In this document: in pieces, positions 54,238 through 64,000 of the stretch
Numbering within the stretch: position 1 is the first letter of the stretch
How the letters are laid out: each line of letters begins with the position of its first letter
Source: an uncultured Actinomycetota bacterium
GTDB lineage: Bacteria > Actinomycetota > Actinomycetes > JAHEKZ01
Direction of reading: 5' to 3'
DNA length: 64,000 nt
NCBI GenBank assembly: GCA_963829525.1
Contig: CAWHIJ010000003.1
Coordinates: 2,327,833-2,391,832, forward strand
Position numbers and translations under genes: made by a program
The notes under the pieces: generated by a model
Told to the model about the DNA's origin: nothing
The model's input: only the letters and a program-made list of their open reading frames with translations
The model's database searches: none

Positions 54238-55077
54238 TCAGGCCACCGATGCGAGAACGGCTACTGATACCGCCGCAAGGGCCAGCCCCCACCGCTGCAG
54301 GGCCTGCAGGTGCTCCTTGAGGACGATCCTCGCCATCAGCACGGTGGCCGCTGGATACAGGGCGGTGATCACGGCGACCACCGTCAGCAGACCCTCGCGG
54401 GTCGCGAGCATGAACATGGCCGTGGCTGCCACGTCCAACAGCGTCGACACCCCAGCTAGGACCAGGACGTCGCGTGGTGGTCTGGCCAGCACCCGAGAGC
54501 CGATGGCCGCGCCGAGGAGCAGGACCGAGGTGACGATGCGGACGACGACCAGGGGCCACAACCCGCTGTCGTCCGGAGCCCGTTCCAGCGCCACCAAGAA
54601 GATCGAGATGAAGACGCCTGCACCGAAGGAGAGCAACAACACTTGCGCCGAGACCGGATGCGGTGCGTCATCATGCACCTGACTCACCATGAGGACGGCC
54701 AGCATCCCCATCGCGATGCCGATCCAGCCCAGGGGTGGCAGTCGCTCTCCGAAGGCCACACCGGCCAGCACTGGGAGCACCACAGCGACCAACGCCGAGA
54801 TCGGCGACGCGACACTCATCGGTCCGATGGCCAGCGCGCGAAAGAGCATCACGTACGCGAAGGCCCCGCCCAATCCCGACACTGCGCCCCAGAACCAGAC
54901 CTCCGAGGTCACCGTCCCACCAACCAGCGGAGCCACCACAAGCAGAACGACGAGCCCGAGGGGCTGGGTCAGCGATCCCAGTAGAAAGATGTGGGCGCGC
55001 CGTGCCGCGAGCCCACCGAGGAAGTCCGTCAGGCCATAGGCGACCGACGACCCCAGAGCCAACAGGATCGCTGTCAC
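54238..55077 (-). CDS. EamA/DMT-superfamily transporter
   Basis: 279 aa, ten TM, duplicated EamA halves. Confidence 0.7.
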   Translation of the reverse strand: MTAILLALGSSVAYGLTDFLGGLAARRAHIFLLGSLTQPLGLVVLLVVAPLVGGTVTSEVWFWGAVSGLGGAFAYVMLFRALAIGPMSVASPISALVAVVLPVLAGVAFGERLPPLGWIGIAMGMLAVLMVSQVHDDAPHPVSAQVLLLSFGAGVFISIFLVALERAPDDSGLWPLVVVRIVTSVLLLGAAIGSRVLARPPRDVLVLAGVSTLLDVAATAMFMLATREGLLTVVAVITALYPAATVLMARIVLKEHLQALQRWGLALAAVSVAVLASVA

Positions 55078-55700
55078 GCTGCAGTCGTCCCCAGAATCCT
55101 GCGAGCTGAGCGCATGGCAGCCCTGGTGGCGCGGGCCGAGCGCATTCGGTTGTCGCCGAGCTCTACTTGCAGGGAGAGCCCGTCGACCAAAGCAACTAGC
55201 GACGCGGCAGCCTCCTCCGACGATCCGTCGATCGTGAAGTCACCGGTGGTGACCCCGTCCTCCACTGCTCGCCGAACCAGTAACCGCCAGCCGCGCGCGA
55301 TGGCAGCGGACTCCTCGCGCAGCGCAGGGTCACGCGATGCTGCACGCCAGTACTCCATCCACAAGAGCCAGCCCTCGCGACGCCGCCCATCATCGATGGA
55401 GATTCCCAGCCGAATGAAGGTCTCGATCCGCTTCCATGGGTCGAGCTCACCTTCAACGGCTGCACGCAGCCGAGCAAGCTCCTCGGCGACTCCCGTTCGC
55501 AAGACTTCACGGACCAGCGCCTCGCGCGTACCGAAGCCGTACTGCAGCGAGCTGACAGGCACGCCTGTCGCCTCTGCCACGTCGGCGAAGCGAAGGGCGT
55601 CGAAGCCGCGCCCGACTGCCACGGCCCGAGCCTGTCGAAGAAGATCATCACGGTCGTGGGCCGGCGGGCGGCCCTTGCGTTTGGGGTCAGACATACCCAT
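55074..55700 (-). CDS. TetR/AcrR family transcriptional regulator
   Basis: N-terminal HTH (FDALRFADVAEATGVPVSSLQYGFGTREAL); start ATG 55700 or 55694; divergent from the oxidoreductase gene. Confidence 0.75.
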   Translation of the reverse strand: MGMSDPKRKGRPPAHDRDDLLRQARAVAVGRGFDALRFADVAEATGVPVSSLQYGFGTREALVREVLRTGVAEELARLRAAVEGELDPWKRIETFIRLGISIDDGRRREGWLLWMEYWRAASRDPALREESAAIARGWRLLVRRAVEDGVTTGDFTIDGSSEEAAASLVALVDGLSLQVELGDNRMRSARATRAAMRSARRILGTTAA

Positions 55701-55740: not shown

Positions 55741-57129
55741 ATGGACACCGCACGACGCTCTATCTCGTACTGGCACGACTCACTCCCTGAAGGAGAGCTC
55801 GCTGCCCTGCGTCCTGAGCTGCCCGGCGACATCGACGCTGACGTCGCCATCGCCGGAGGGGGTTTCACCGGTCTTTGGACTGCCTACTACCTGGCGCTCC
55901 GTGACCCCTCTCTCCGCATCGTCGTGCTCGAGAAAGACTTCGCAGGGTTCGGCGCTTCCGGTCGCAACGGCGGATGGGCATCGGCCTTTCTTCCCACTAG
56001 CTGGGAGGCGGTCGCCAAGGCATCCTCTCGCGACGAGGCACTCCGCATGCAGCGAGCCGCCAACGCCGCCGTCGACGTCGTGGGCTCGGTAGCTGCCGAG
56101 GAAGGCATTGACGCCCACTACGCCAAGGGTGGATACCTCCGCGTTGCGACGTCTGCGCTGCAGTGGGCCCGATTGCAGCAGCAGCTCGCCCACGCTCGCG
56201 AATGGGACCAGACCGAAGAAGACATCGCCCTTCTCGATCGTCGCGAGGCAACAGCCCGCATCGACGCCGACGGGGTTTTCGGCGGGCTGTACACGCCGCA
56301 ATGCGCCGCGATACACCCGGCGCGGATGGTGCGCGGACTGGCAGCGGCTGCCGAGCGACTCGGTGTGACCATCTACGAGGGCACCGAGGTCACGGCCATC
56401 GAACCGGGAGCAGCACGCACAGCGCTCGGAACCGTACGTGCCGAAGTGGTGGTTCGCGCGCTTGAGGGGTACACCGCGAGCCTGCCGCAGTACCGACGCG
56501 CGCTGTTGCCGATGTACTCGCTGATGATCGCCACCGAACCCCTCCCCGACCACGTGTGGGACGAGATCGGCTGGCGCGATCGCGAGACTCTCAATGACGA
56601 CCGGCGCTTCCTGATCTACGCGCAGCGCACAGCCGATGGCCGCATCGCGCTCGGCGGTCGTGGTGCTCCATACCGGTGGGGTTCTCGGATCGACCCCGCC
56701 TTCGAACACCCTCGCGGGGTACACGAGGCGCTGCGCCACAGCTTGATCAAGCTCTTCCCCGCCCTCCACGGCATCTCCATCACTCACCGGTGGGGAGGCG
56801 TCCTAGGCGTTCCGCGTGACTGGTTCCCGTCGGTCCGCTTCGACCGATCCACCGGGTTTGCCACCGCAGGTGGGTACGCCGGCGACGGCGTAACCCTCAC
56901 CAACCTTGCCGGGCGGACGTTGGCCGACCTCATCACTGGAACCGAGAGCGACCTGACCTCGCTGCCGTGGGTCGGGCACGAGTCGCGCAACTTCGAGCCA
57001 GAGCCAATGCGCTTCACAGGGGTCAACGCCGGCATGCGGCTGGCCTCGTGGGTCGACAGCCGCGAAGAGCGGACCGGCCGTCACGCCGGCGTCCTGGACA
57101 AAGCGCTAGGCCTGCTTAGCGGCCACTGA
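55741..57129 (+). CDS. FAD-dependent oxidoreductase, DAO family (PuuB/OrdL-like)
   Basis: ATG 55741 after gagggaga; dinucleotide-binding VAIAGGGFTGLWTAYYL and GASGRNGG motif; the 712-aa ORF-track call starting at 54991 is a spurious upstream extension antisense to the TetR gene. Confidence 0.75.
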   Translation: MDTARRSISYWHDSLPEGELAALRPELPGDIDADVAIAGGGFTGLWTAYYLALRDPSLRIVVLEKDFAGFGASGRNGGWASAFLPTSWEAVAKASSRDEALRMQRAANAAVDVVGSVAAEEGIDAHYAKGGYLRVATSALQWARLQQQLAHAREWDQTEEDIALLDRREATARIDADGVFGGLYTPQCAAIHPARMVRGLAAAAERLGVTIYEGTEVTAIEPGAARTALGTVRAEVVVRALEGYTASLPQYRRALLPMYSLMIATEPLPDHVWDEIGWRDRETLNDDRRFLIYAQRTADGRIALGGRGAPYRWGSRIDPAFEHPRGVHEALRHSLIKLFPALHGISITHRWGGVLGVPRDWFPSVRFDRSTGFATAGGYAGDGVTLTNLAGRTLADLITGTESDLTSLPWVGHESRNFEPEPMRFTGVNAGMRLASWVDSREERTGRHAGVLDKALGLLSGH

Positions 57130-57160: not shown

Positions 57161-57763
57161 TTAGAGCGCCTTTCGGGCGGCGAGCATGTCTTCCATGGTC
57201 GCGATCTCAGCTTGCTGTCCGGCCACGATGGTGTCCGCCAGGTAGGTCACCTCCTCGCGTTCGGTGAGTGGCAGCACCGCCTCGGCCATCTCGACCCCGC
57301 CTTTGTGGTGCTCGATCATCAGCTGAAGAAAGAGGATCTCGGCCTCCCTCCCAGACGCGTCGCGCAGCTTCTGCAGATCAGCGTCCGATGCCATACCGGG
57401 CATGTCGTCGTACGACGTCATCATTGCGTCGTTGTGCCCATGGTCGGTCCACTCCATCGGTGGCCGCACTGACGTCTGCGGTAGCTCCCACTGCTGGAGC
57501 CAGCCGCTGAACATCCCGATCTGGGCGCGCTGAGTGTTGATGATGTCGTAAGCCATGGCGCGCACCTCGGGATCGTCGGTGCGATCGCGCACGATGAAGG
57601 CAAGCTCGACCGCCTGGGCGTGGTGCACCGACATGTCGCGCGCAAATCCGGCCTCGGCCGACTGGTCCCCCGGCTCGGTCTCGTTGCCCAACAGGAGCGC
57701 GCCAAGGACGAGGCCGAGAATGAGCGCCGCGACCGCGGCGATTGCGACCGTCAGGGCCTTCAC
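57161..57763 (-). CDS. DUF305 family protein (secreted, His-rich, metal-binding type)
   Basis: N-terminal signal/anchor, duplicated HH-containing helices (DMSVHHAQAVELA ... LMIEHHKGGVEMA). Confidence 0.7.
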   Translation of the reverse strand: MKALTVAIAAVAALILGLVLGALLLGNETEPGDQSAEAGFARDMSVHHAQAVELAFIVRDRTDDPEVRAMAYDIINTQRAQIGMFSGWLQQWELPQTSVRPPMEWTDHGHNDAMMTSYDDMPGMASDADLQKLRDASGREAEILFLQLMIEHHKGGVEMAEAVLPLTEREEVTYLADTIVAGQQAEIATMEDMLAARKAL

Positions 57764-58305
57764 TCCATCAGCCCCGACTCACAGGTGGCGCCGGGCTCGG
57801 GGGTCTGCGGGCCGGCTCGGTACATGGTGAGGAACTCATCGATGCGCGGGTCGCCAGCGCTGTCAACGCCGAGTTGGACACCCCATGCGGTGAGCACGAT
57901 GGGCGAGTCCTGGCCCGGATAGGGACTCATGAACGAGTACGGCTGACCGTCGACCTTGGCGGCCAGGGCGTCGATGTCGGTCTGAGAGACGGCGTCGGTG
58001 TAGGTCACCCAGACAGCGCCGTGCTCCATCGAGTGCACGGCATTCTCGTTCCGGAGCGGCTGCTCATAGACAGTGCCCGTGCAGTCCATCCACTTCGGAT
58101 CGTGGTCGCCGCCCACGGGAGGACTCTGCGGGTAGTCGACATCGTCAGTTGTGTGATCGCGCGCAAGATCCCCGTACGTCTGGACCCCCTCGATCCCCCC
58201 GTCACTGGGCGTTGGAGTGGGCTCGGAGCTACTCGAGCAACCAACCAGCGATCCCATGACGAAGACGACGGAGACGGCGAGCACAACCTGTGAGCGAGTC
58301 TTCAT
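57760..58305 (-). CDS. DUF3105 family lipoprotein
   Basis: ATG 58305; signal peptide with lipobox (VMGSLVGC-SSS); conserved blocks PPVGGDH, EHGAVWVTY, TAWG, GPQTPEPGATCE shared with the paralog at 60934-61563. Confidence 0.65.
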   Translation of the reverse strand: MKTRSQVVLAVSVVFVMGSLVGCSSSSEPTPTPSDGGIEGVQTYGDLARDHTTDDVDYPQSPPVGGDHDPKWMDCTGTVYEQPLRNENAVHSMEHGAVWVTYTDAVSQTDIDALAAKVDGQPYSFMSPYPGQDSPIVLTAWGVQLGVDSAGDPRIDEFLTMYRAGPQTPEPGATCESGLME

Positions 58306-58336
58306 ACCCACGATGGAACCACGTTGCAGCACCGGA

Positions 58337-60889
58337 TCAGGACAACGGGCGGCTCCGCTCGGCGTCGAAGAAGGGCCGCAGCGACGCCTTAACCGGCACG
58401 CGGGTGCCGGCGATGTCGACCTCGAAGCTGCCGCCGTTGATGTCAGCGGCGGTGAACCCGGCCTCTCTCTCGACATCGGCGATGCCACAGGCAGCCCCCA
58501 GCGAGTACCCGAAGGCCCCGACTCGGAGCGAACCGACTGGCTCGCTATCGATGAAGATCGGCTCGGCCCCGACAAGGTCGAAGTCTGCAGACTCAAGAAG
58601 GACGTTGACGAGTCGCTTCTTCAGCGGACCACTCTCCTTCTGCTTGAGAAGCGCCTCGCGTCCGACGAAACCACCCGGCTTGTCCCAGGCGACGGCGAAC
58701 CCGAGGCCAGCCTCGAGAGGAGTGTCCGTCGAGTCGATGTCGTGCCCCATGTCGCGATAGGCCTTCTCCATGCGCATCGACGACAACGCTCCAACCCCGG
58801 TCGGCTTGAATCCAAGGTCTTGGCCAGCAGCGCGGATCTGGTCGTAGAGGGTCGCGCCGAACTCAGTAGGAATGAGCAGGTCCCAGCCGAGCTCGCCAAC
58901 GTAGGTGACGCGCAGCGCCCAGAGCGGCGTATATCCGAGTTCGACCTTCTGCGCGGTGAGGTAGGGAAACGCCTCGTTCGACCAGTCGTTCGGGCTGAGC
59001 CGCTGCAGCAGCTCGCGGGAACGTGGGCCCTGGACGGTGAGTAGCCCCAGTCCGCTGGTGACGTCGGTGACCGTGAGGAACTCACCCTCGTCGGTGTGCC
59101 GGCGGATCCAGGCAGGCAGCCGCCGGTGGACGTTGTCGGCGCTGATGACCAGGAACTGGTCGTCAGCCTGACGCGTCACGGTCACGTCGGCGATGATGCC
59201 GCCGCGCTCGTCGAGCCACTGGGTGTAGACGATGCGTCCGACCTCGGTGTCGATGTCGTTGGCGCACACCCGGTTCATCACCTGCATCGCGTGCGGGCCC
59301 TGGACGAGGTAGTTCGACATCATCGTCATGTCGATGGCGCCGACGTTCTCGCGCGCATTCAGGTGCTCGTCACGGGTACGGTCGAACGCCTCACCCCGCT
59401 TGAACCCCCACTCGACTGTTGGCGTAGCACCTGGGCCACTGAAGAACTCCGGGTACTCCCAGCCGTTGGACGCGACCATGTAGGCGCCGTCCGCCAGGTG
59501 CTGCTCGTGGAACGGCCCGCGTCGAACGTTGCGACCTTCCTTCGGCATGGCGTTCGGCCACGACAGGTCGTTGAGCAGGAAGCCAAGGCGCTCGACGGTT
59601 CGCTCCTTACGGAACAACCGCGTCGCCTGGAACTCGTGGGTGCGGTCAACGCCCACCTCGGTGAGGTCGATCGGCGGGTACTCCTCGATCAGCCACTGCG
59701 CCATGACGTGGCCGAGCCCGCCACCCATGAGGATGCCGACGGAGTTCAGGCCGCAGGCGAGGTAGAGCCCATCCACCTCGGGCGACTCACCCAGCATTGG
59801 CGAGATGTCGTCGGTGAAGCTCTCCGGTCCGCAGAAGAGCGTGCGGATACCCGCGTCTTCCAAGGCGGGGAAGCGTTTCATCGCCTTCTCGAGGAACGGC
59901 GAGAGACGGTCCCAGTCGGGCGGTAGAACGGCGAACGCGGAGTCCTTGGGAGTGCCGTCCAACGACCACGCCGCACCGACCGGCTCGAACATTCCGACGA
60001 GCAGGCCGCCGCCCTCTTCGCGGTAGTAGCCGTAGGCCTCGGGGTCTTCGATCACCGGGACGCTCTCGGGCGTGACGCCGTCGATCGGCTCGGTCAGCAG
60101 GTAGTAGTGCTCAGCGGCCTGCAGCGGAACGGTAACGCCGGCCTTGGCTGCAAGCTCCCGGCCCCACAGCCCCGATGCCAGCACGACCTTCTCGCATTCG
60201 ATGGTTCCGCGTTCGGTCACGACGCCAACGATGCGGCTGTCCTTGATGACGAAGTCGATGACCTCGGTGTTCTCGAAGATCTGGGCGCCCTTCATCTTGG
60301 CGCCTTTGGCCATCGACATGGTCACGTCGACCGGGTTGGCGCGGCCCTCGTCCGGCGTCCAGAACCCGTGGATGACGTCGTCCACCTGCATGAGGGGAAC
60401 GATGTCGAGGATCTCCTGCGGAGACAGGATCTGCTTCTCCATGCCGATCGAGCGCATGTAGGCGGTTTCGCGCCGGTAGGCCTCGTCGCGACGCTCAGTC
60501 GTGGCCAGCTGGAGATAGCCGACGTCCTTGAAACCGGTCGACAGGCCCGTCTCCTTCTCCAACCTGGTGTAGAGGTCGCGCGAGTACCGCGCCATCCAGA
60601 GCGGATCTTCCGATGCCCCTCCGGAGACCACCTCACCGGCGGCATGCCAGGTGGTGCCAGAGGTCAGCTGTTTACGCTCCAGAAGCACGACGTCCGTGGC
60701 GCCCATCGTCGCAAGGTGGTAGGCGATCGAGGTACCGATCACCCCACCACCGACGACGACGTACTGCGCCCGCGACGGCAGATCTGAGCCGCTCTGGGTA
60801 TCGGCAGCCTTTGCTGCCGCTGGGTTGATATCAGCGAAGTCGAGAGACATGTCGTCAGCCTGCCATGGGTTGGTTCGCTGGTCGACCAT
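58337..60889 (-). CDS. dimethylglycine/sarcosine dehydrogenase-family flavoenzyme (DAO FAD domain fused to GcvT-like folate-binding aminomethyltransferase domain)
   Basis: 850 aa; N-terminal VVVGGGVIGTSIAYHL dinucleotide fold, C-terminal GcvT-like region (LVQGPHAMQVM..., GELGWDLLIP); alternative start ATG 60850. Confidence 0.85.
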   Translation of the reverse strand: MVDQRTNPWQADDMSLDFADINPAAAKAADTQSGSDLPSRAQYVVVGGGVIGTSIAYHLATMGATDVVLLERKQLTSGTTWHAAGEVVSGGASEDPLWMARYSRDLYTRLEKETGLSTGFKDVGYLQLATTERRDEAYRRETAYMRSIGMEKQILSPQEILDIVPLMQVDDVIHGFWTPDEGRANPVDVTMSMAKGAKMKGAQIFENTEVIDFVIKDSRIVGVVTERGTIECEKVVLASGLWGRELAAKAGVTVPLQAAEHYYLLTEPIDGVTPESVPVIEDPEAYGYYREEGGGLLVGMFEPVGAAWSLDGTPKDSAFAVLPPDWDRLSPFLEKAMKRFPALEDAGIRTLFCGPESFTDDISPMLGESPEVDGLYLACGLNSVGILMGGGLGHVMAQWLIEEYPPIDLTEVGVDRTHEFQATRLFRKERTVERLGFLLNDLSWPNAMPKEGRNVRRGPFHEQHLADGAYMVASNGWEYPEFFSGPGATPTVEWGFKRGEAFDRTRDEHLNARENVGAIDMTMMSNYLVQGPHAMQVMNRVCANDIDTEVGRIVYTQWLDERGGIIADVTVTRQADDQFLVISADNVHRRLPAWIRRHTDEGEFLTVTDVTSGLGLLTVQGPRSRELLQRLSPNDWSNEAFPYLTAQKVELGYTPLWALRVTYVGELGWDLLIPTEFGATLYDQIRAAGQDLGFKPTGVGALSSMRMEKAYRDMGHDIDSTDTPLEAGLGFAVAWDKPGGFVGREALLKQKESGPLKKRLVNVLLESADFDLVGAEPIFIDSEPVGSLRVGAFGYSLGAACGIADVEREAGFTAADINGGSFEVDIAGTRVPVKASLRPFFDAERSRPLS

Positions 60890-60933
60890 TCAGTCAAAAT
60901 GGGGGTAAAGATTCCGCAACGCTGGTCAAGCGC

Positions 60934-61563
60934 TCAGGCTTGGGGGTCTTCGCAGGAGGCTCCCGGCTCCGGTGTCTGCGGTCCCTGCCGGAACTCGGTG
61001 ACGAAGTCGTCCAACCGGGGGTCGTCCGGGCCATCGAGGAGGAGCTGGTTGTTCCACGCGGTCGCGACCACCGGGGCCTCCTGCCCCTCGAACGGCGAGA
61101 GCAGCGTGTAGTTCTCGTCCAGCCTGCCCTTCAGCGCGTCGATCTCCGACTCGGACAACGCGGGGTCGTAGGTGATCCAAACCGCACCATGCTCGAGCGA
61201 GTGCACCGCCTTCTCGCTGGCGATGGGGTCGTCGTAGAACTTGCACTCCAGCCAGACCGGGCTGTGCTCCCCACCGACCGGCGGTGACTCTTCGTACTCG
61301 ACCTGGTCGTCGACCGCCGGAGTGTGTTTCCCGGCGCCGTAGTCGAAGGTCTGCACCTCGTCGAGGGCACCCGGAGTGGCATCCTCGGTTCCGGCCTGGA
61401 CCGCCCAGACCACACCACCCACCGTCACGACGACGGCTGTCACCAGACCACCGGTGAGCAGCGCGGTCGATCGGCGGGATCGCTTGGTGTCGTCATTGCG
61501 CATCTGCGCAACCTTCTTCTCACGCTCTTCGCGCCGGCGCTGGGCGTTCGACCCCATGTTCAC
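60934..61563 (-). CDS. DUF3105 family protein, N-terminally membrane-anchored paralog
   Basis: basic N-terminus then one TM (ALLTGGLVTAVVVTVGGVVWAV); conserved PPVGGEH, EHGAVWITY, TAWN, GPQTPEPGASCE. Confidence 0.65.
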   Translation of the reverse strand: MNMGSNAQRRREEREKKVAQMRNDDTKRSRRSTALLTGGLVTAVVVTVGGVVWAVQAGTEDATPGALDEVQTFDYGAGKHTPAVDDQVEYEESPPVGGEHSPVWLECKFYDDPIASEKAVHSLEHGAVWITYDPALSESEIDALKGRLDENYTLLSPFEGQEAPVVATAWNNQLLLDGPDDPRLDDFVTEFRQGPQTPEPGASCEDPQA

Positions 61564-61672: not shown

Positions 61673-62446
61673 TCAGCCCGGGAGGCGAAGTTTCCGCGTC
61701 GTCGCGACTAGACCGAACCCCAGCGACTCATAGAGCCGTCGGGCCGGGTTGCCTTCGGTGACGGCCAGCGACACCGACGACTCCCCCGACTCTCGGCAGA
61801 GGATGAGCGCGCGGACGAGGAGGGCGCGACCCAGTCCCGCGTAGCGCCGATCTGGGTCGCGAAACAGGTCGGTGACCCATGGCCCGCCGGTGGGCGCAGC
61901 GCCAGGAACCCGGTTGACCATGACCAACCCGACGGGCCGATCATCGTCGAAAACCAGGGCACTCATGTCCATCAAGGCACCGAGTCGATCGCCGTCGAGC
62001 GCGCGCCTGATGTCGCGGACGATGTCGTCATCGCTGCCGAGCTCTTCATCAGGATGGCCGGGCGGGTAGGCCGATCTGACCAATCCGATGATGTCGCGCG
62101 GGATCTCACTGTCGATCATCAGCGGACGCACGTCGTAAACATCCAGCGACGCGATGTCACCAATCCGCTCACCCCGAGAGGCAAGATCGACGGTCATCAG
62201 GGAAAAGTGCCGAGTCGACAAGGCGCCGCACTCGATCAGAGCCGAGGCGAGCGCATCGTCGGTAGTGGTGAGGTTCCACCCGGCCAGGTCGGTCAGGATG
62301 GCATCGACCACGCGCCCCAGATCCGCCGTTGCCTCGAACAGCTCAGCTGAGGGAGGGTCCGCGTCGTACCGGTTGAACTGTCCGAGCAGTTCGCTACCGC
62401 GCGTCAACTGCTCAACGCGTTGGCTCCTGTCGCTGTCCCCATCCAC
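61673..62446 (-). CDS. GNAT-family N-acetyltransferase (C-terminal domain) protein
   Basis: C-terminal acetyl-CoA-binding pattern (RYAGLGRALLVRAL ... LAVTEGNPARRLYESLGF). Confidence 0.5.
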   Translation of the reverse strand: MDGDSDRSQRVEQLTRGSELLGQFNRYDADPPSAELFEATADLGRVVDAILTDLAGWNLTTTDDALASALIECGALSTRHFSLMTVDLASRGERIGDIASLDVYDVRPLMIDSEIPRDIIGLVRSAYPPGHPDEELGSDDDIVRDIRRALDGDRLGALMDMSALVFDDDRPVGLVMVNRVPGAAPTGGPWVTDLFRDPDRRYAGLGRALLVRALILCRESGESSVSLAVTEGNPARRLYESLGFGLVATTRKLRLPG

Positions 62447-62551
62447 ACACCATGCCTATCGCGTCAGCCCGCGCTGCGCCATCACAATCTGCAACGGGTC
62501 AGGCCGACGGGAGTGTGACCCGCCGCCGCTGATAGCCTCCCGAAGTCCCCG

Positions 62552-62624
62552 CCCCCGTAGCTCAGGGGATAGAGCATCGGCCTCCGGAGCCGTGTGCGCA
62601 GGTTCGAATCCTGCCGGGGGCACA
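62552..62624 (+). tRNA. tRNA-Arg (anticodon CCG)
   Basis: folded by hand: 7-bp acceptor GCCCCCG/CGGGGGC, D-arm GCTC-AGGGGATA-GAGC, anticodon loop CTCCGGA, T-arm GCAGG-TTCGAAT-CCTGC; one U-U mismatch at the top of the anticodon stem; 4-nt variable loop; CCA not encoded. Confidence 0.8.
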
Positions 62625-62685: not shown

Positions 62686-63036
62686 CTAGATGGGTGTTGC
62701 TCCCTCGGCCGTGATGAGTATCAGCACGAACCGGCACGGTGTCAGGGCGAGCACGGCGTGGCGTTCGTTGGGCGCCAGGTAGACCACATCACCAGCTGCC
62801 AGGTTGTGACGCTGACCTGCCGCGGTGAAGGTGATGCTTCCTTCCATCACCTGGACAACGACTGGGCGTGGCGCCGAGTGGTCGGTCAGCTCTTGCCCCG
62901 CGTCCATGGCGAAGGACACCACGCGGGCGGCGTCGTTGCTCACGACAGTGCGTGAGGTCGTGGCCTCCCCCGTGATGGGCAGCTCCGCATGGACGTTCTC
63001 GACCACGATGGAATCTGCTACCGCCGTCTTCGTCAT
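62686..63036 (-). CDS. cupin-domain protein
   Basis: 116 aa small beta-barrel; conserved His/Glu region (HSAPRPVVVQVMEG, GDVVYLAPNERHAV). Confidence 0.55.
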   Translation of the reverse strand: MTKTAVADSIVVENVHAELPITGEATTSRTVVSNDAARVVSFAMDAGQELTDHSAPRPVVVQVMEGSITFTAAGQRHNLAAGDVVYLAPNERHAVLALTPCRFVLILITAEGATPI

Positions 63037-63110
63037 CGTGGCCTCCGGACCGTTGCAACTCCGGTCCCGATCCTTTCACACTCCCACGGAGCCGATCGAA
63101 CTACTGAGAG

Positions 63111-63845
63111 CTACTGCGAAAGAGCCACCTTCAGCTCGTCCGAGGACTCGTATCTGGTCCAGTCGGATCCTTTTCGGACGTGGACGCCGCCACGGCCGAC
63201 GACCTGCCACCGCTCCCCATCCCCGATCATCGCGGTCTGCTCGTCCACGCCGATCAACAGATCCTCGCCAGGTACCGTGCGCATCATGTGATCCACGAGC
63301 CCAGGTGCGAAGCGATCCAGCATGTCCCAGTGCGGACCGAGCCACGCGTGCGGAAAGAGCTCAAGGCCCTGTCGCCAGAGATCTGGAGAGAAGTCCTCGA
63401 CGCTGCTGTCCGGAGCCTTACGACCCAGGCATGCCATCCCGGCGCTGCAGCCGATGTAGCCCATACCTCGGTCCAGCCCACTGACGATGGCCCGCCAAAG
63501 TGCGGTGCCCTTGAGTGAGGCGGCCAGGTAGGCCGGGTTACCTCCGGAGAAGTAGACGAGGGACGCCGTTTCCACCCGCTCGGCGATCGACCTGTCATCA
63601 GCATCGGTCCGGTCCCGCACCTCGAGAAGCTCTGCGGTCATATCTGCCTCCGCGAAGTGGGCCAGCCCCGCCTCCGCCCATCCGCTGAACATCTCATCAC
63701 CCTCCGGCGCCGACGCCGTGGGCACGATGAGCACCCGGCCATCACCGGTCACTCGATCGAGCAACCAGGCATCGACCTCGTGCGACCACGGCTGGAACTC
63801 ACCGGAGCCGAGCAATCCGAACCATCCGCTCATTCGCTCATCCAT
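63111..63845 (-). CDS. peptidase S51 family (cyanophycinase / peptidase E-like) protein
   Basis: FSGGNPAYL motif and class-I glutamine-amidotransferase-like fold pattern; several candidate starts between 63833 and 63887. Confidence 0.55.
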   Translation of the reverse strand: MDERMSGWFGLLGSGEFQPWSHEVDAWLLDRVTGDGRVLIVPTASAPEGDEMFSGWAEAGLAHFAEADMTAELLEVRDRTDADDRSIAERVETASLVYFSGGNPAYLAASLKGTALWRAIVSGLDRGMGYIGCSAGMACLGRKAPDSSVEDFSPDLWRQGLELFPHAWLGPHWDMLDRFAPGLVDHMMRTVPGEDLLIGVDEQTAMIGDGERWQVVGRGGVHVRKGSDWTRYESSDELKVALSQ

Positions 63846-64000
63846 TCTGCGCATCGGAGGGACTGCCGTGCCATGGCAGGGCTCCACTGATCCTCACCGA
63901 AAGAGGCGGCCAACCAAGCCATCATGGTGATCAGCCCGTCGGGAGCGAAGGTACCGCCACACCAGGGAACCGGCAGAGATCGATCAAGGAAGATGCCCGA

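Follow-up and report, generated by a model that had tools for sequence, protein, structure and literature searches.

The window analysed here is a stretch of 64,000 nucleotides (nt) from an uncultured Actinomycetota bacterium (contig CAWHIJ010000003.1, positions 2,327,833 to 2,391,832). Between positions 57161 and 61563 of the window lie four genes, all on the minus strand and in the same direction, as seen from the list of open reading frames (ORFs) and from Pfam matches: a DUF3105 gene (DUF3105b), the gene for a large flavoenzyme, a second DUF3105 gene (DUF3105a) and a DUF305 gene. This locus is likely to be composed of two unrelated parts lying side by side – a conserved pair, DUF3105 and DUF305, whose products would handle metal outside the cytoplasm, and a cytoplasmic flavoenzyme. 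The conserved unit is a two-gene cassette, DUF3105 then DUF305, while the flavoenzyme adjoins DUF3105 only in close relatives of the window actinomycete. The initial annotation of this DNA had correctly described four co-directional minus-strand genes, and the domains, shared motifs, lipobox and membrane anchor that it listed were all found in the sequence. It had also taken the four genes as one system, in which a folate-dependent demethylase works with exported metalloproteins. This proposal was not supported: the linkage is found only in one lineage, which shares the whole backbone synteny.

Recurrence of the DUF3105–DUF305 pair

Eighty genome loci were found with the DUF3105 profile, in Streptomyces, Kitasatospora, Actinomadura, Spirillospora and metagenome-assembled genomes (MAGs), with Streptomycetaceae making up the majority. 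In 74 of the 80, DUF305 is directly downstream of DUF3105 on the same strand. The same neighbour is directly downstream in 42 of the 58 metagenome loci with at least 700 nt of sequence beyond DUF3105. DUF3105 was found on 84 plasmids and DUF305 on 221; of the 45 plasmids with comparable coordinates, at least 40 carry them side by side – 35 in the usual order and five, from the Arthrobacter group, in the reverse order. The taxa with the bicistron include Actinomycetota and Deinococcota, and the genomic contexts are unrelated. DUF305 exists without DUF3105, for example in Acinetobacter, in Nostoc and as Synechocystis CopM; DUF3105 without DUF305 is rare. The initial annotation had suggested co-occurrence across actinobacterial genomes as a check on the locus, with a lack of linkage elsewhere as the refuting result. 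The DUF3105–DUF305 linkage stands by this measure; for the flavoenzyme, described below, the refuting result is essentially what was found.

The stop codon of DUF3105a in the window overlaps the GTG start codon of DUF305 by four bases (GTGA, 57760–57763), a detail absent from the initial annotation. The same four-base overlap is found in 69 of the 79 loci that have both genes. Over the four genes of the window the intergenic spacings are −4, 31 and 44–83 nt. A scan of the four-gene block for promoters and terminators gave nothing above shuffled expectation.

Other arrangements were observed as well. In a plasmid of Arthrobacter sp. J3.40 (locus L172, 7036–8429) and in Paenarthrobacter plasmids, DUF305 is followed after a gap of ca. 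60 nt by DUF3105, beside an ECF-type (extracytoplasmic function) sigma factor. On plasmid 1 of Arthrobacter sp. FB24 (L177) DUF3105 stands by itself, and its neighbours are genes for a TDT transporter and a LysR regulator. Three low-GC metagenome contigs (L113, L116 and L143) have two DUF3105 matches each and no DUF305, with a tandem confirmed only in L113 (34–1234). In L116 a CopA-type ATPase is encoded ca. 1 kb upstream of DUF3105, and in L143 a CopC-CopD-cytochrome c fusion is encoded ca. 900 nt downstream.

The DUF305 protein

The DUF305 gene (57161–57763, minus strand, GTG start) encodes a protein of 200 amino acids. It matches PF03713 over the whole profile (1–151) with an E-value of 1.4e-48, scoring 165.3 bits where the cutoff is 27. 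Its matches in the PDB include a DUF305 protein of Streptomyces coelicolor (2qf9, E=3e-47) and CopM (5fej, E=3e-13). The hydropathy profile has a hydrophobic segment at residues 1–29, an export or anchor signal, and HH motifs are found at residues 47–48 and 152–153, in keeping with the duplicated HH motifs and secretion noted in the initial annotation. The protein also has a conserved MPGM motif, 13 methionines and no cysteine. These features are general to the pair – among 78 DUF305 partners linked to DUF3105, both HH motifs and the MPGM motif are at least 95% conserved, each partner has 13–21 methionines, and cysteine is absent.

Characterised relatives are associated with copper. Synechocystis CopM is copper-binding, copper-induced and exported (PMC4335983), and the curA copper operon of Myxococcus includes a DUF305 lipoprotein (PMC3707914). 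With its two HH motifs and a methionine-rich loop, the CopM-like four-helix-bundle protein of the window would bind or buffer metal.

The DUF3105 proteins

DUF3105a (57760–58305, minus strand) is 181 amino acids long from an ATG at 58305 and matches PF11303 with an E-value of 4e-49 and 166 bits, against a cutoff of 25 bits. Its N-terminus reads as a lipoprotein signal – MKTR, a hydrophobic stretch and the lipobox LVGC at residues 20–23 – and the equivalent of Cys23 is retained in the alignment of lipoprotein-type orthologues. DUF3105a is thus predicted to be a membrane-tethered lipoprotein. DUF3105b (60934–61563, minus strand; 209 amino acids; E=6e-44, 150 bits) begins with a basic tail of 31 residues, 11 of them lysine or arginine, followed by one hydrophobic segment at ca. 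residues 32–59, and is predicted to have a cytoplasmic tail and a single transmembrane anchor. In this check of hydropathy and motifs, the two signals agree with the outward-facing orientation that had been proposed for both proteins.

The two paralogues are 51% identical over 144 residues, and every identical block quoted in the initial annotation was recovered in the pairwise comparison. The genes paired with DUF305 in Streptomyces and Kitasatospora are 55–62% identical to DUF3105a versus 42–50% to DUF3105b; judged by these identities, it is DUF3105a that is orthologous to the DUF305-paired gene found elsewhere. DUF3105b keeps all of the family-invariant histidines, glutamate and cysteines. 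Between the window and L001, an Actinomycetia MAG, identity is 74% for DUF3105b (60934–61563 versus L001:6769–7365), 83% for DUF3105a, 89% for DUF305 and 97% for the flavoenzyme. DUF3105b is an intact, diverged extra copy and the fastest-evolving gene of the block.

The DUF3105 family has 4197 representatives at 50% clustering. Conservation was assessed in 150 representatives with pairwise identity of at most ca. 50%, and seven residues are near-invariant (at least 90%) among them: His51, His68, Cys75, His91, Glu94, His95 and Cys175. This bears out the conserved histidines, glutamate and cysteines pointed out in the initial annotation. Both paralogues carry the complete family signature – His51, PPxGGxH68, Cys75, H91xxEH95, W99, TAW141 and Cys175. 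Cys75 and Cys175 probably form a disulfide. His51, His68, His91, Glu94 and His95 are candidate metal ligands that may cluster in space.

Sequence and profile searches of the PDB with DUF3105 found no relative among solved structures. A first structure model, from an alignment of 24 sequences, had a predicted local distance difference test score (pLDDT) of 61 and was discarded. When repeated with the 150 family representatives, AlphaFold2 gave a model with a pLDDT of 94.9 and a predicted template modelling score (pTM) of 0.90, in which the order of strands and helices matches that of thioredoxin – a thioredoxin-like fold. The CxxC (or CxxS) site at the start of helix alpha2 is absent, Cys75 and Cys175 being the only conserved cysteines. 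His91 and Glu94 lie within helix alpha1, with His95 directly after its last residue, and His51 and His68 lie in an N-terminal extension of 45 residues. A scan of long DUF3105 proteins for domain fusions was uninformative, with solely weak Peptidase_M50 matches and one SecDF head domain.

The two Pfam families are catalogued and the link between CopM and copper is published. In the literature searched there was no mention of PF11303, and no paper was found that describes DUF3105, how it folds or that it is almost always paired with DUF305; DUF3105 is named once, in an unrelated context, that of ribosomally synthesised and post-translationally modified peptides. This is in line with the statement in the initial annotation that the family has no assigned function.

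Metal-related genes surrounding the pair

The neighbours of the pair were pooled from ca. 36 diverse loci, giving 139 proteins. The most common Pfam families among them were E1-E2_ATPase (6), Cation_efflux (6), ZT_dimer (6), CopD (3) and HMA (2). Neighbours that could be typed include CopA-like ATPases with CopZ domains, a Zn/Cd-type P1B ATPase, ZitB-like CDF transporters, ZIP, CopC-CopD-cytochrome c and CopD-CtaG proteins, ArsR and LspA. One of the ZitB-like CDF genes overlaps the stop codon of DUF3105.

Metal-homeostasis genes surround the pair on plasmids of Rhodococcus, Nocardia, Kineococcus, Streptomyces and Deinococcus, as they do in several metagenome lineages, and the genes around it also include Sco, PCuAC, CsoR regulators, TlpA/CcdA/VKOR and LspA/Lnt. 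The island in Rhodococcus plasmid pBD2 encodes two TlpA proteins, CcdA, ResB, Lnt, DUF3105, DUF305, a CtaG-like protein, CopC, a thioredoxin-domain protein with VKOR, and CtaD. The island in Nocardia plasmid pNF1 encodes a CopY-family regulator, an M56 protein, CopC, a CtaG-like protein, DUF3105, DUF305, an M23 protein, CcdA, two TlpA proteins and a CDF transporter. In Deinococcus sp. NW-56, genes for PCuAC, a P1B ATPase, glutaredoxin, LspA, DUF3105, DUF305, a CDF transporter, SCO and ArsR are all on one strand, with overlapping genes among them. A plasmid of Rhodococcus pyridinivorans has the pair in an annotated metal island, and Streptomyces sp. CdTB01 has CopCD near it. Kineococcus plasmid pKRAD01 has a comparable metal island around DUF3105–DUF305, and two proteins of this island, the CDF transporter (Krad4570) and a DsbA-like protein (Krad4572), were increased under copper in a published proteome (PMC2928746).

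In four loci a gene for LspA or Lnt is directly beside DUF3105–DUF305 (L175:8414–9441, L171:6134–8594, L174:7141–10570 and L157:10134–10622), which fits the lipoprotein nature of DUF3105.

The flavoenzyme and its linkage to the pair

The flavoenzyme gene (58337–60889, minus strand) encodes a fusion of DAO (PF01266, 242 bits), GCV_T (PF01571, 250 bits) and GCV_T_C (PF08669, 48 bits) domains, with a weak match to FAO_M (24.4 bits, below the cutoff of 27). It aligns over its full length with rat and human dimethylglycine dehydrogenase (DMGDH; 4p9s/5l46, E=4e-130) and with dimethylglycine oxidase (DMGO) of Arthrobacter (1pj5, E=5e-100). Its SGTTWHAAG sequence aligns to the flavinylation motif, which is AGSTWHAAG in DMGDH and GGSTSHAPG in DMGO; the histidine of this motif carries a covalent 8-alpha-histidyl-FAD in those enzymes. 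The hydropathy profile shows no hydrophobic segment. The architecture of DMGDH and sarcosine dehydrogenase (SarDH) assigned in the initial annotation stands, and the length of 850 amino acids given there probably does not – because all homologues are ca. 837 amino acids long, the true start is probably not at 60889 and is instead the ATG at 60850 (Met14), giving 837 amino acids. No NCBIfam equivalog reaches its cutoff with this protein, and its names differ between sources, the automatic name from the Joint Genome Institute (JGI) being 4-methylaminobutanoate oxidase. It is predicted to be a cytoplasmic, covalently flavinylated, folate-dependent dehydrogenase or oxidase of N-methyl amines, whose substrate is not assigned by sequence. 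As the gaps on its two sides are so short, the flavoenzyme is probably co-transcribed with its neighbours.

The four-gene order of the window recurs in L001, in a second MAG (L007), in a metagenome contig that is 98% identical (L091) and in a 76-kb JGI contig. The flavoenzyme is 96–99% identical in L001, L007 and L091. All contigs with this order also share a wider backbone – Peptidase_S51 and GNAT genes on one side, and DAO oxidoreductase, TetR, EamA, response regulator, DoxX and ArgRS genes on the other – so the linkage of the flavoenzyme to the pair can be explained by descent. In the more distant L004, in which DUF3105 is 59% identical, the backbone is the same and DUF3105–DUF305 stands in it alone. 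A sister clade (L089/L090 and L093/L094) lacks DUF305; its genes here encode an aldo-keto reductase, the flavoenzyme, a Cys/Met pyridoxal phosphate (PLP) enzyme and a single DUF3105. Orthologues of the flavoenzyme in Nocardioides are 77% identical, and in two Nocardioides genomes neither DUF3105 nor DUF305 is found within 7 kb of it, the contexts being unrelated. Overall, the flavoenzyme is present in one of the 80 genome loci (L007), in two of the 36 metagenome loci with enough flanking sequence, both from the lineage of the window, and in none of the eight plasmid islands read. It appears to be a passenger, functionally independent of the pair.

Downstream of the flavoenzyme orthologue in Nocardioides sp. 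GXQ0305 (L087:9961–12916) a CsoR-family regulator is encoded together with two rhodanese-domain proteins and a TauE exporter. This cluster resembles a sulfide- or persulfide-response cluster and is unrelated to DUF3105–DUF305.

A betaine-to-glycine pathway made up of the flavoenzyme, the neighbouring DAO oxidoreductase and the BetI-type TetR regulator was considered and rejected as unsupported. The 462-amino-acid DAO protein is closest to models of the aminophosphonate and pipecolate oxidase type, not to sarcosine oxidase, and the DAO/TetR pair persists in L004, which lacks the flavoenzyme.

Proposed function and alternative explanations

The combination of metal-handling pair and unconnected flavoenzyme could work as follows. 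The GTGA overlap would couple translation of the two genes and so lead to matched synthesis of DUF3105 and DUF305, both of which would be at the outer face of the cytoplasmic membrane. DUF305 would bind or buffer the metal, most probably copper. DUF3105 – a thioredoxin fold without CxxC, with histidine and glutamate candidate ligands and a probable disulfide – would be the membrane-proximal partner, passing metal to or from DUF305 or changing its redox state, and the two proteins may form a complex. Copper is the most likely metal for the pair as a whole, with zinc also possible. In the lineage of the window, the flavoenzyme lies between the cassette and the second, diverged copy of DUF3105 and would have no functional tie to the pair.

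A number of observations weigh against this explanation. In the window, the ca. 6 kb around the pair contain no copper or zinc gene, and no metal gene is enriched around the chromosomal copies in Streptomyces, which may do something more general than resistance. The common neighbours of those copies are glnA, an S53 peptidase, nadE, Rrf2, hmp and glnE; these conserved housekeeping neighbours were considered as a functional signal and, coming from 80 mostly Streptomycetaceae genomes, were read as phylogenetic inertia. The sequence upstream of DUF3105 was searched in 174 loci for operators of CsoR, CopY, Zur and IdeR, and none was found beyond chance. The metal itself is ambiguous, as zinc-type partners (ZitB-like CDF, ZIP, Zn/Cd ATPase and ArsR/SmtB) are about as frequent as copper-type partners. 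The DUF305 protein narrowly misses the NCBIfam CopM equivalog-domain model (NF049983), with 86.8 bits against a cutoff of 90, and is for this reason named CopM-like, not CopM. Many of the loci are phylogenetically non-independent, such as those from Streptomycetaceae and the Rhodococcus islands, which are near-identical. Finally, the flavoenzyme stays beside DUF3105 in two sub-clades whose flavoenzymes differ by 33%, and there may be a lineage-specific functional tie between the two.

In the reading of the initial annotation, all four genes would form one system, for example with a copper-dependent extracellular step that supplies methylated amines to the flavoenzyme. The common direction of the genes with gaps of −4, 31 and 44–83 nt, the retention of the order in L001, L007, L091 and the JGI contig, and the variant in the sister clade (flavoenzyme, PLP enzyme, DUF3105) speak for this. 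We give the idea very little credence: descent of the whole backbone can account for the linkage, L004 has the backbone with DUF3105–DUF305 alone, the Nocardioides orthologues have neither gene within 7 kb, and the flavoenzyme accompanies so few of the genome and metagenome loci and none of the islands. A similarly low probability is attached to a role for the pair in thiol-disulfide exchange or cytochrome maturation, with DUF3105 as a thioredoxin-fold accessory of TlpA, CcdA, ResB or VKOR-DsbA. The fold is the right one, and in L171, L173, L174 and L176 the genes flanking the pair include two for TlpA, CcdA, ResB/CcsB, VKOR with a thioredoxin-domain protein, and ctaD. On the other hand, CxxC is absent and the two conserved cysteines, 100 residues apart, resemble a structural disulfide. 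Most of the chromosomal and metagenome copies have no such redox genes near them, and redox modules usually accompany copper islands in any case.

An involvement of zinc is more plausible than either of these, and still improbable as an explanation of its own. In one form DUF3105 would be a zinc-dependent enzyme, a hydrolase of the HxxEH inverted zincin type acting on envelope or exported-protein substrates; in another the pair would serve zinc homeostasis, with DUF305 as donor or buffer. HS[ML]EH does not vary in the family; predicted helix alpha1 contains His91 and Glu94 and is directly followed by His95, and M23 and M56 metallopeptidase genes are found in the same islands. A ZitB-like CDF gene is beside the pair or overlaps it in L134, L147, L155–L158, L173 and L175, and ZIP, Zn/Cd-type P1B ATPase and ArsR/SmtB genes are also found near it. 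However, the thioredoxin-like fold is unlike that of any metallopeptidase and there is no Pfam match to M16 or to any other peptidase family, so that the likeness to M16-type inverted zincins is one of motif only. For zinc homeostasis, the points on the other side are that characterised DUF305 members bind copper and that CopC/CopD, CtaG-like, Sco, PCuAC and CopA proteins with CopZ domains are equally common near the pair.

A metal-handling DUF3105–DUF305 pair next to an independent flavoenzyme is thus retained as the likely account of the locus, and it has consequences beyond the window. Tentatively, and with somewhat less than even probability, DUF3105 may represent an unrecognised class of extracytoplasmic metalloproteins in which a His/Glu metal centre replaces CxxC on a thioredoxin-fold scaffold, and may be the obligatory membrane-tethered partner of CopM-like DUF305 proteins – a core two-protein copper (or copper and zinc) device on the chromosomes and mobile islands of Actinomycetota and Deinococcota. 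For copper handling outside the cytoplasmic membrane, Gram-positive and high-GC bacteria are much less well charted than Proteobacteria. With ca. 4200 representatives, almost always tied to a CopM-like gene, DUF3105 is a testable candidate for a missing copper-handling component, and genes for CopC/CopD, Sco, PCuAC, P1B ATPases and CDF transporters accompany it where it is carried by plasmids of polluted soils. A thioredoxin-like fold with a cluster of histidine and glutamate would, if true, be an unusual design for a metal site. For the window, the consequence is that the demethylase-like flavoenzyme should not be counted in the metal system.

Neighbouring features of the window

On one side of the locus, a BetI-type TetR gene (55074–55700, minus strand) is divergent from the 462-amino-acid DAO-family oxidoreductase gene (55741–57129, plus strand), with a gap of 40 nt between them. 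The best NCBIfam model for the oxidoreductase is a putative aminophosphonate oxidoreductase, with a score far below cutoff. The TetR/DAO pair and an EamA gene (54238–55077) are kept in all relatives of the lineage whatever fills the slot next to them (L001, L004 and L089). What fills this slot, which is bounded by the GNAT gene and by the DAO/TetR/EamA genes, varies among related genomes, with three contents – the four genes; DUF3105–DUF305; and the aldo-keto reductase, flavoenzyme, PLP enzyme and DUF3105.

On the other side, a tRNA-Arg (CCG) gene (62551–62623, plus strand) lies between the GNAT gene (61673–62446, minus strand) and a small cupin gene (62686–63036, minus strand). The cupin (116 amino acids) and a Peptidase_S51 protein (258 amino acids) are encoded by separate ORFs within 62686–63887 on the minus strand of the window. 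In L001 (4642–5724) they are called as one gene of 360 amino acids; gene fusion, gene splitting or a difference in gene calling may account for this.

Comparison with known systems

The flavoenzyme shares its DAO and GcvT-type architecture and the histidine of the flavinylation motif with DMGDH, SarDH and DMGO, and the E-values are to be read as distant family membership only. The four-gene block contains no further gene of a betaine or sarcosine pathway.

The DUF305 protein has the same Pfam domain as CopM of Synechocystis sp. PCC 6803 and 2qf9, and like these it is an exported or secreted helical bundle, as predicted here, with two conserved HH motifs and a methionine-rich composition. Relatives adjoin copper genes. 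Synechocystis copM is in the copMRS operon with a two-component system and without a DUF3105 partner, whereas the DUF305 gene of the window appears translationally coupled to DUF3105 and has no cop regulator or efflux gene near it.

No relation in sequence between DUF3105 and Sco or TlpA could be detected, and DUF3105 has neither CxxxC nor CxxC; its candidate ligands are instead four histidines and one glutamate, partly on the 45-residue N-terminal extension. Like the Sco1/SenC and TlpA families, it is predicted to be membrane-tethered and outward-facing, and it shares islands with SCO, TlpA, CopC and PCuAC genes. The pair in the window is chromosomal, with argS and hom/thrC near it in a housekeeping region, and every other component of the metal islands is absent there. 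What the window has in common with the plasmid islands of Rhodococcus (pBD2), Nocardia (pNF1), Kineococcus (pKRAD01) and Deinococcus sp. NW-56 is the DUF3105–DUF305 cassette itself, usually with its two genes overlapping.

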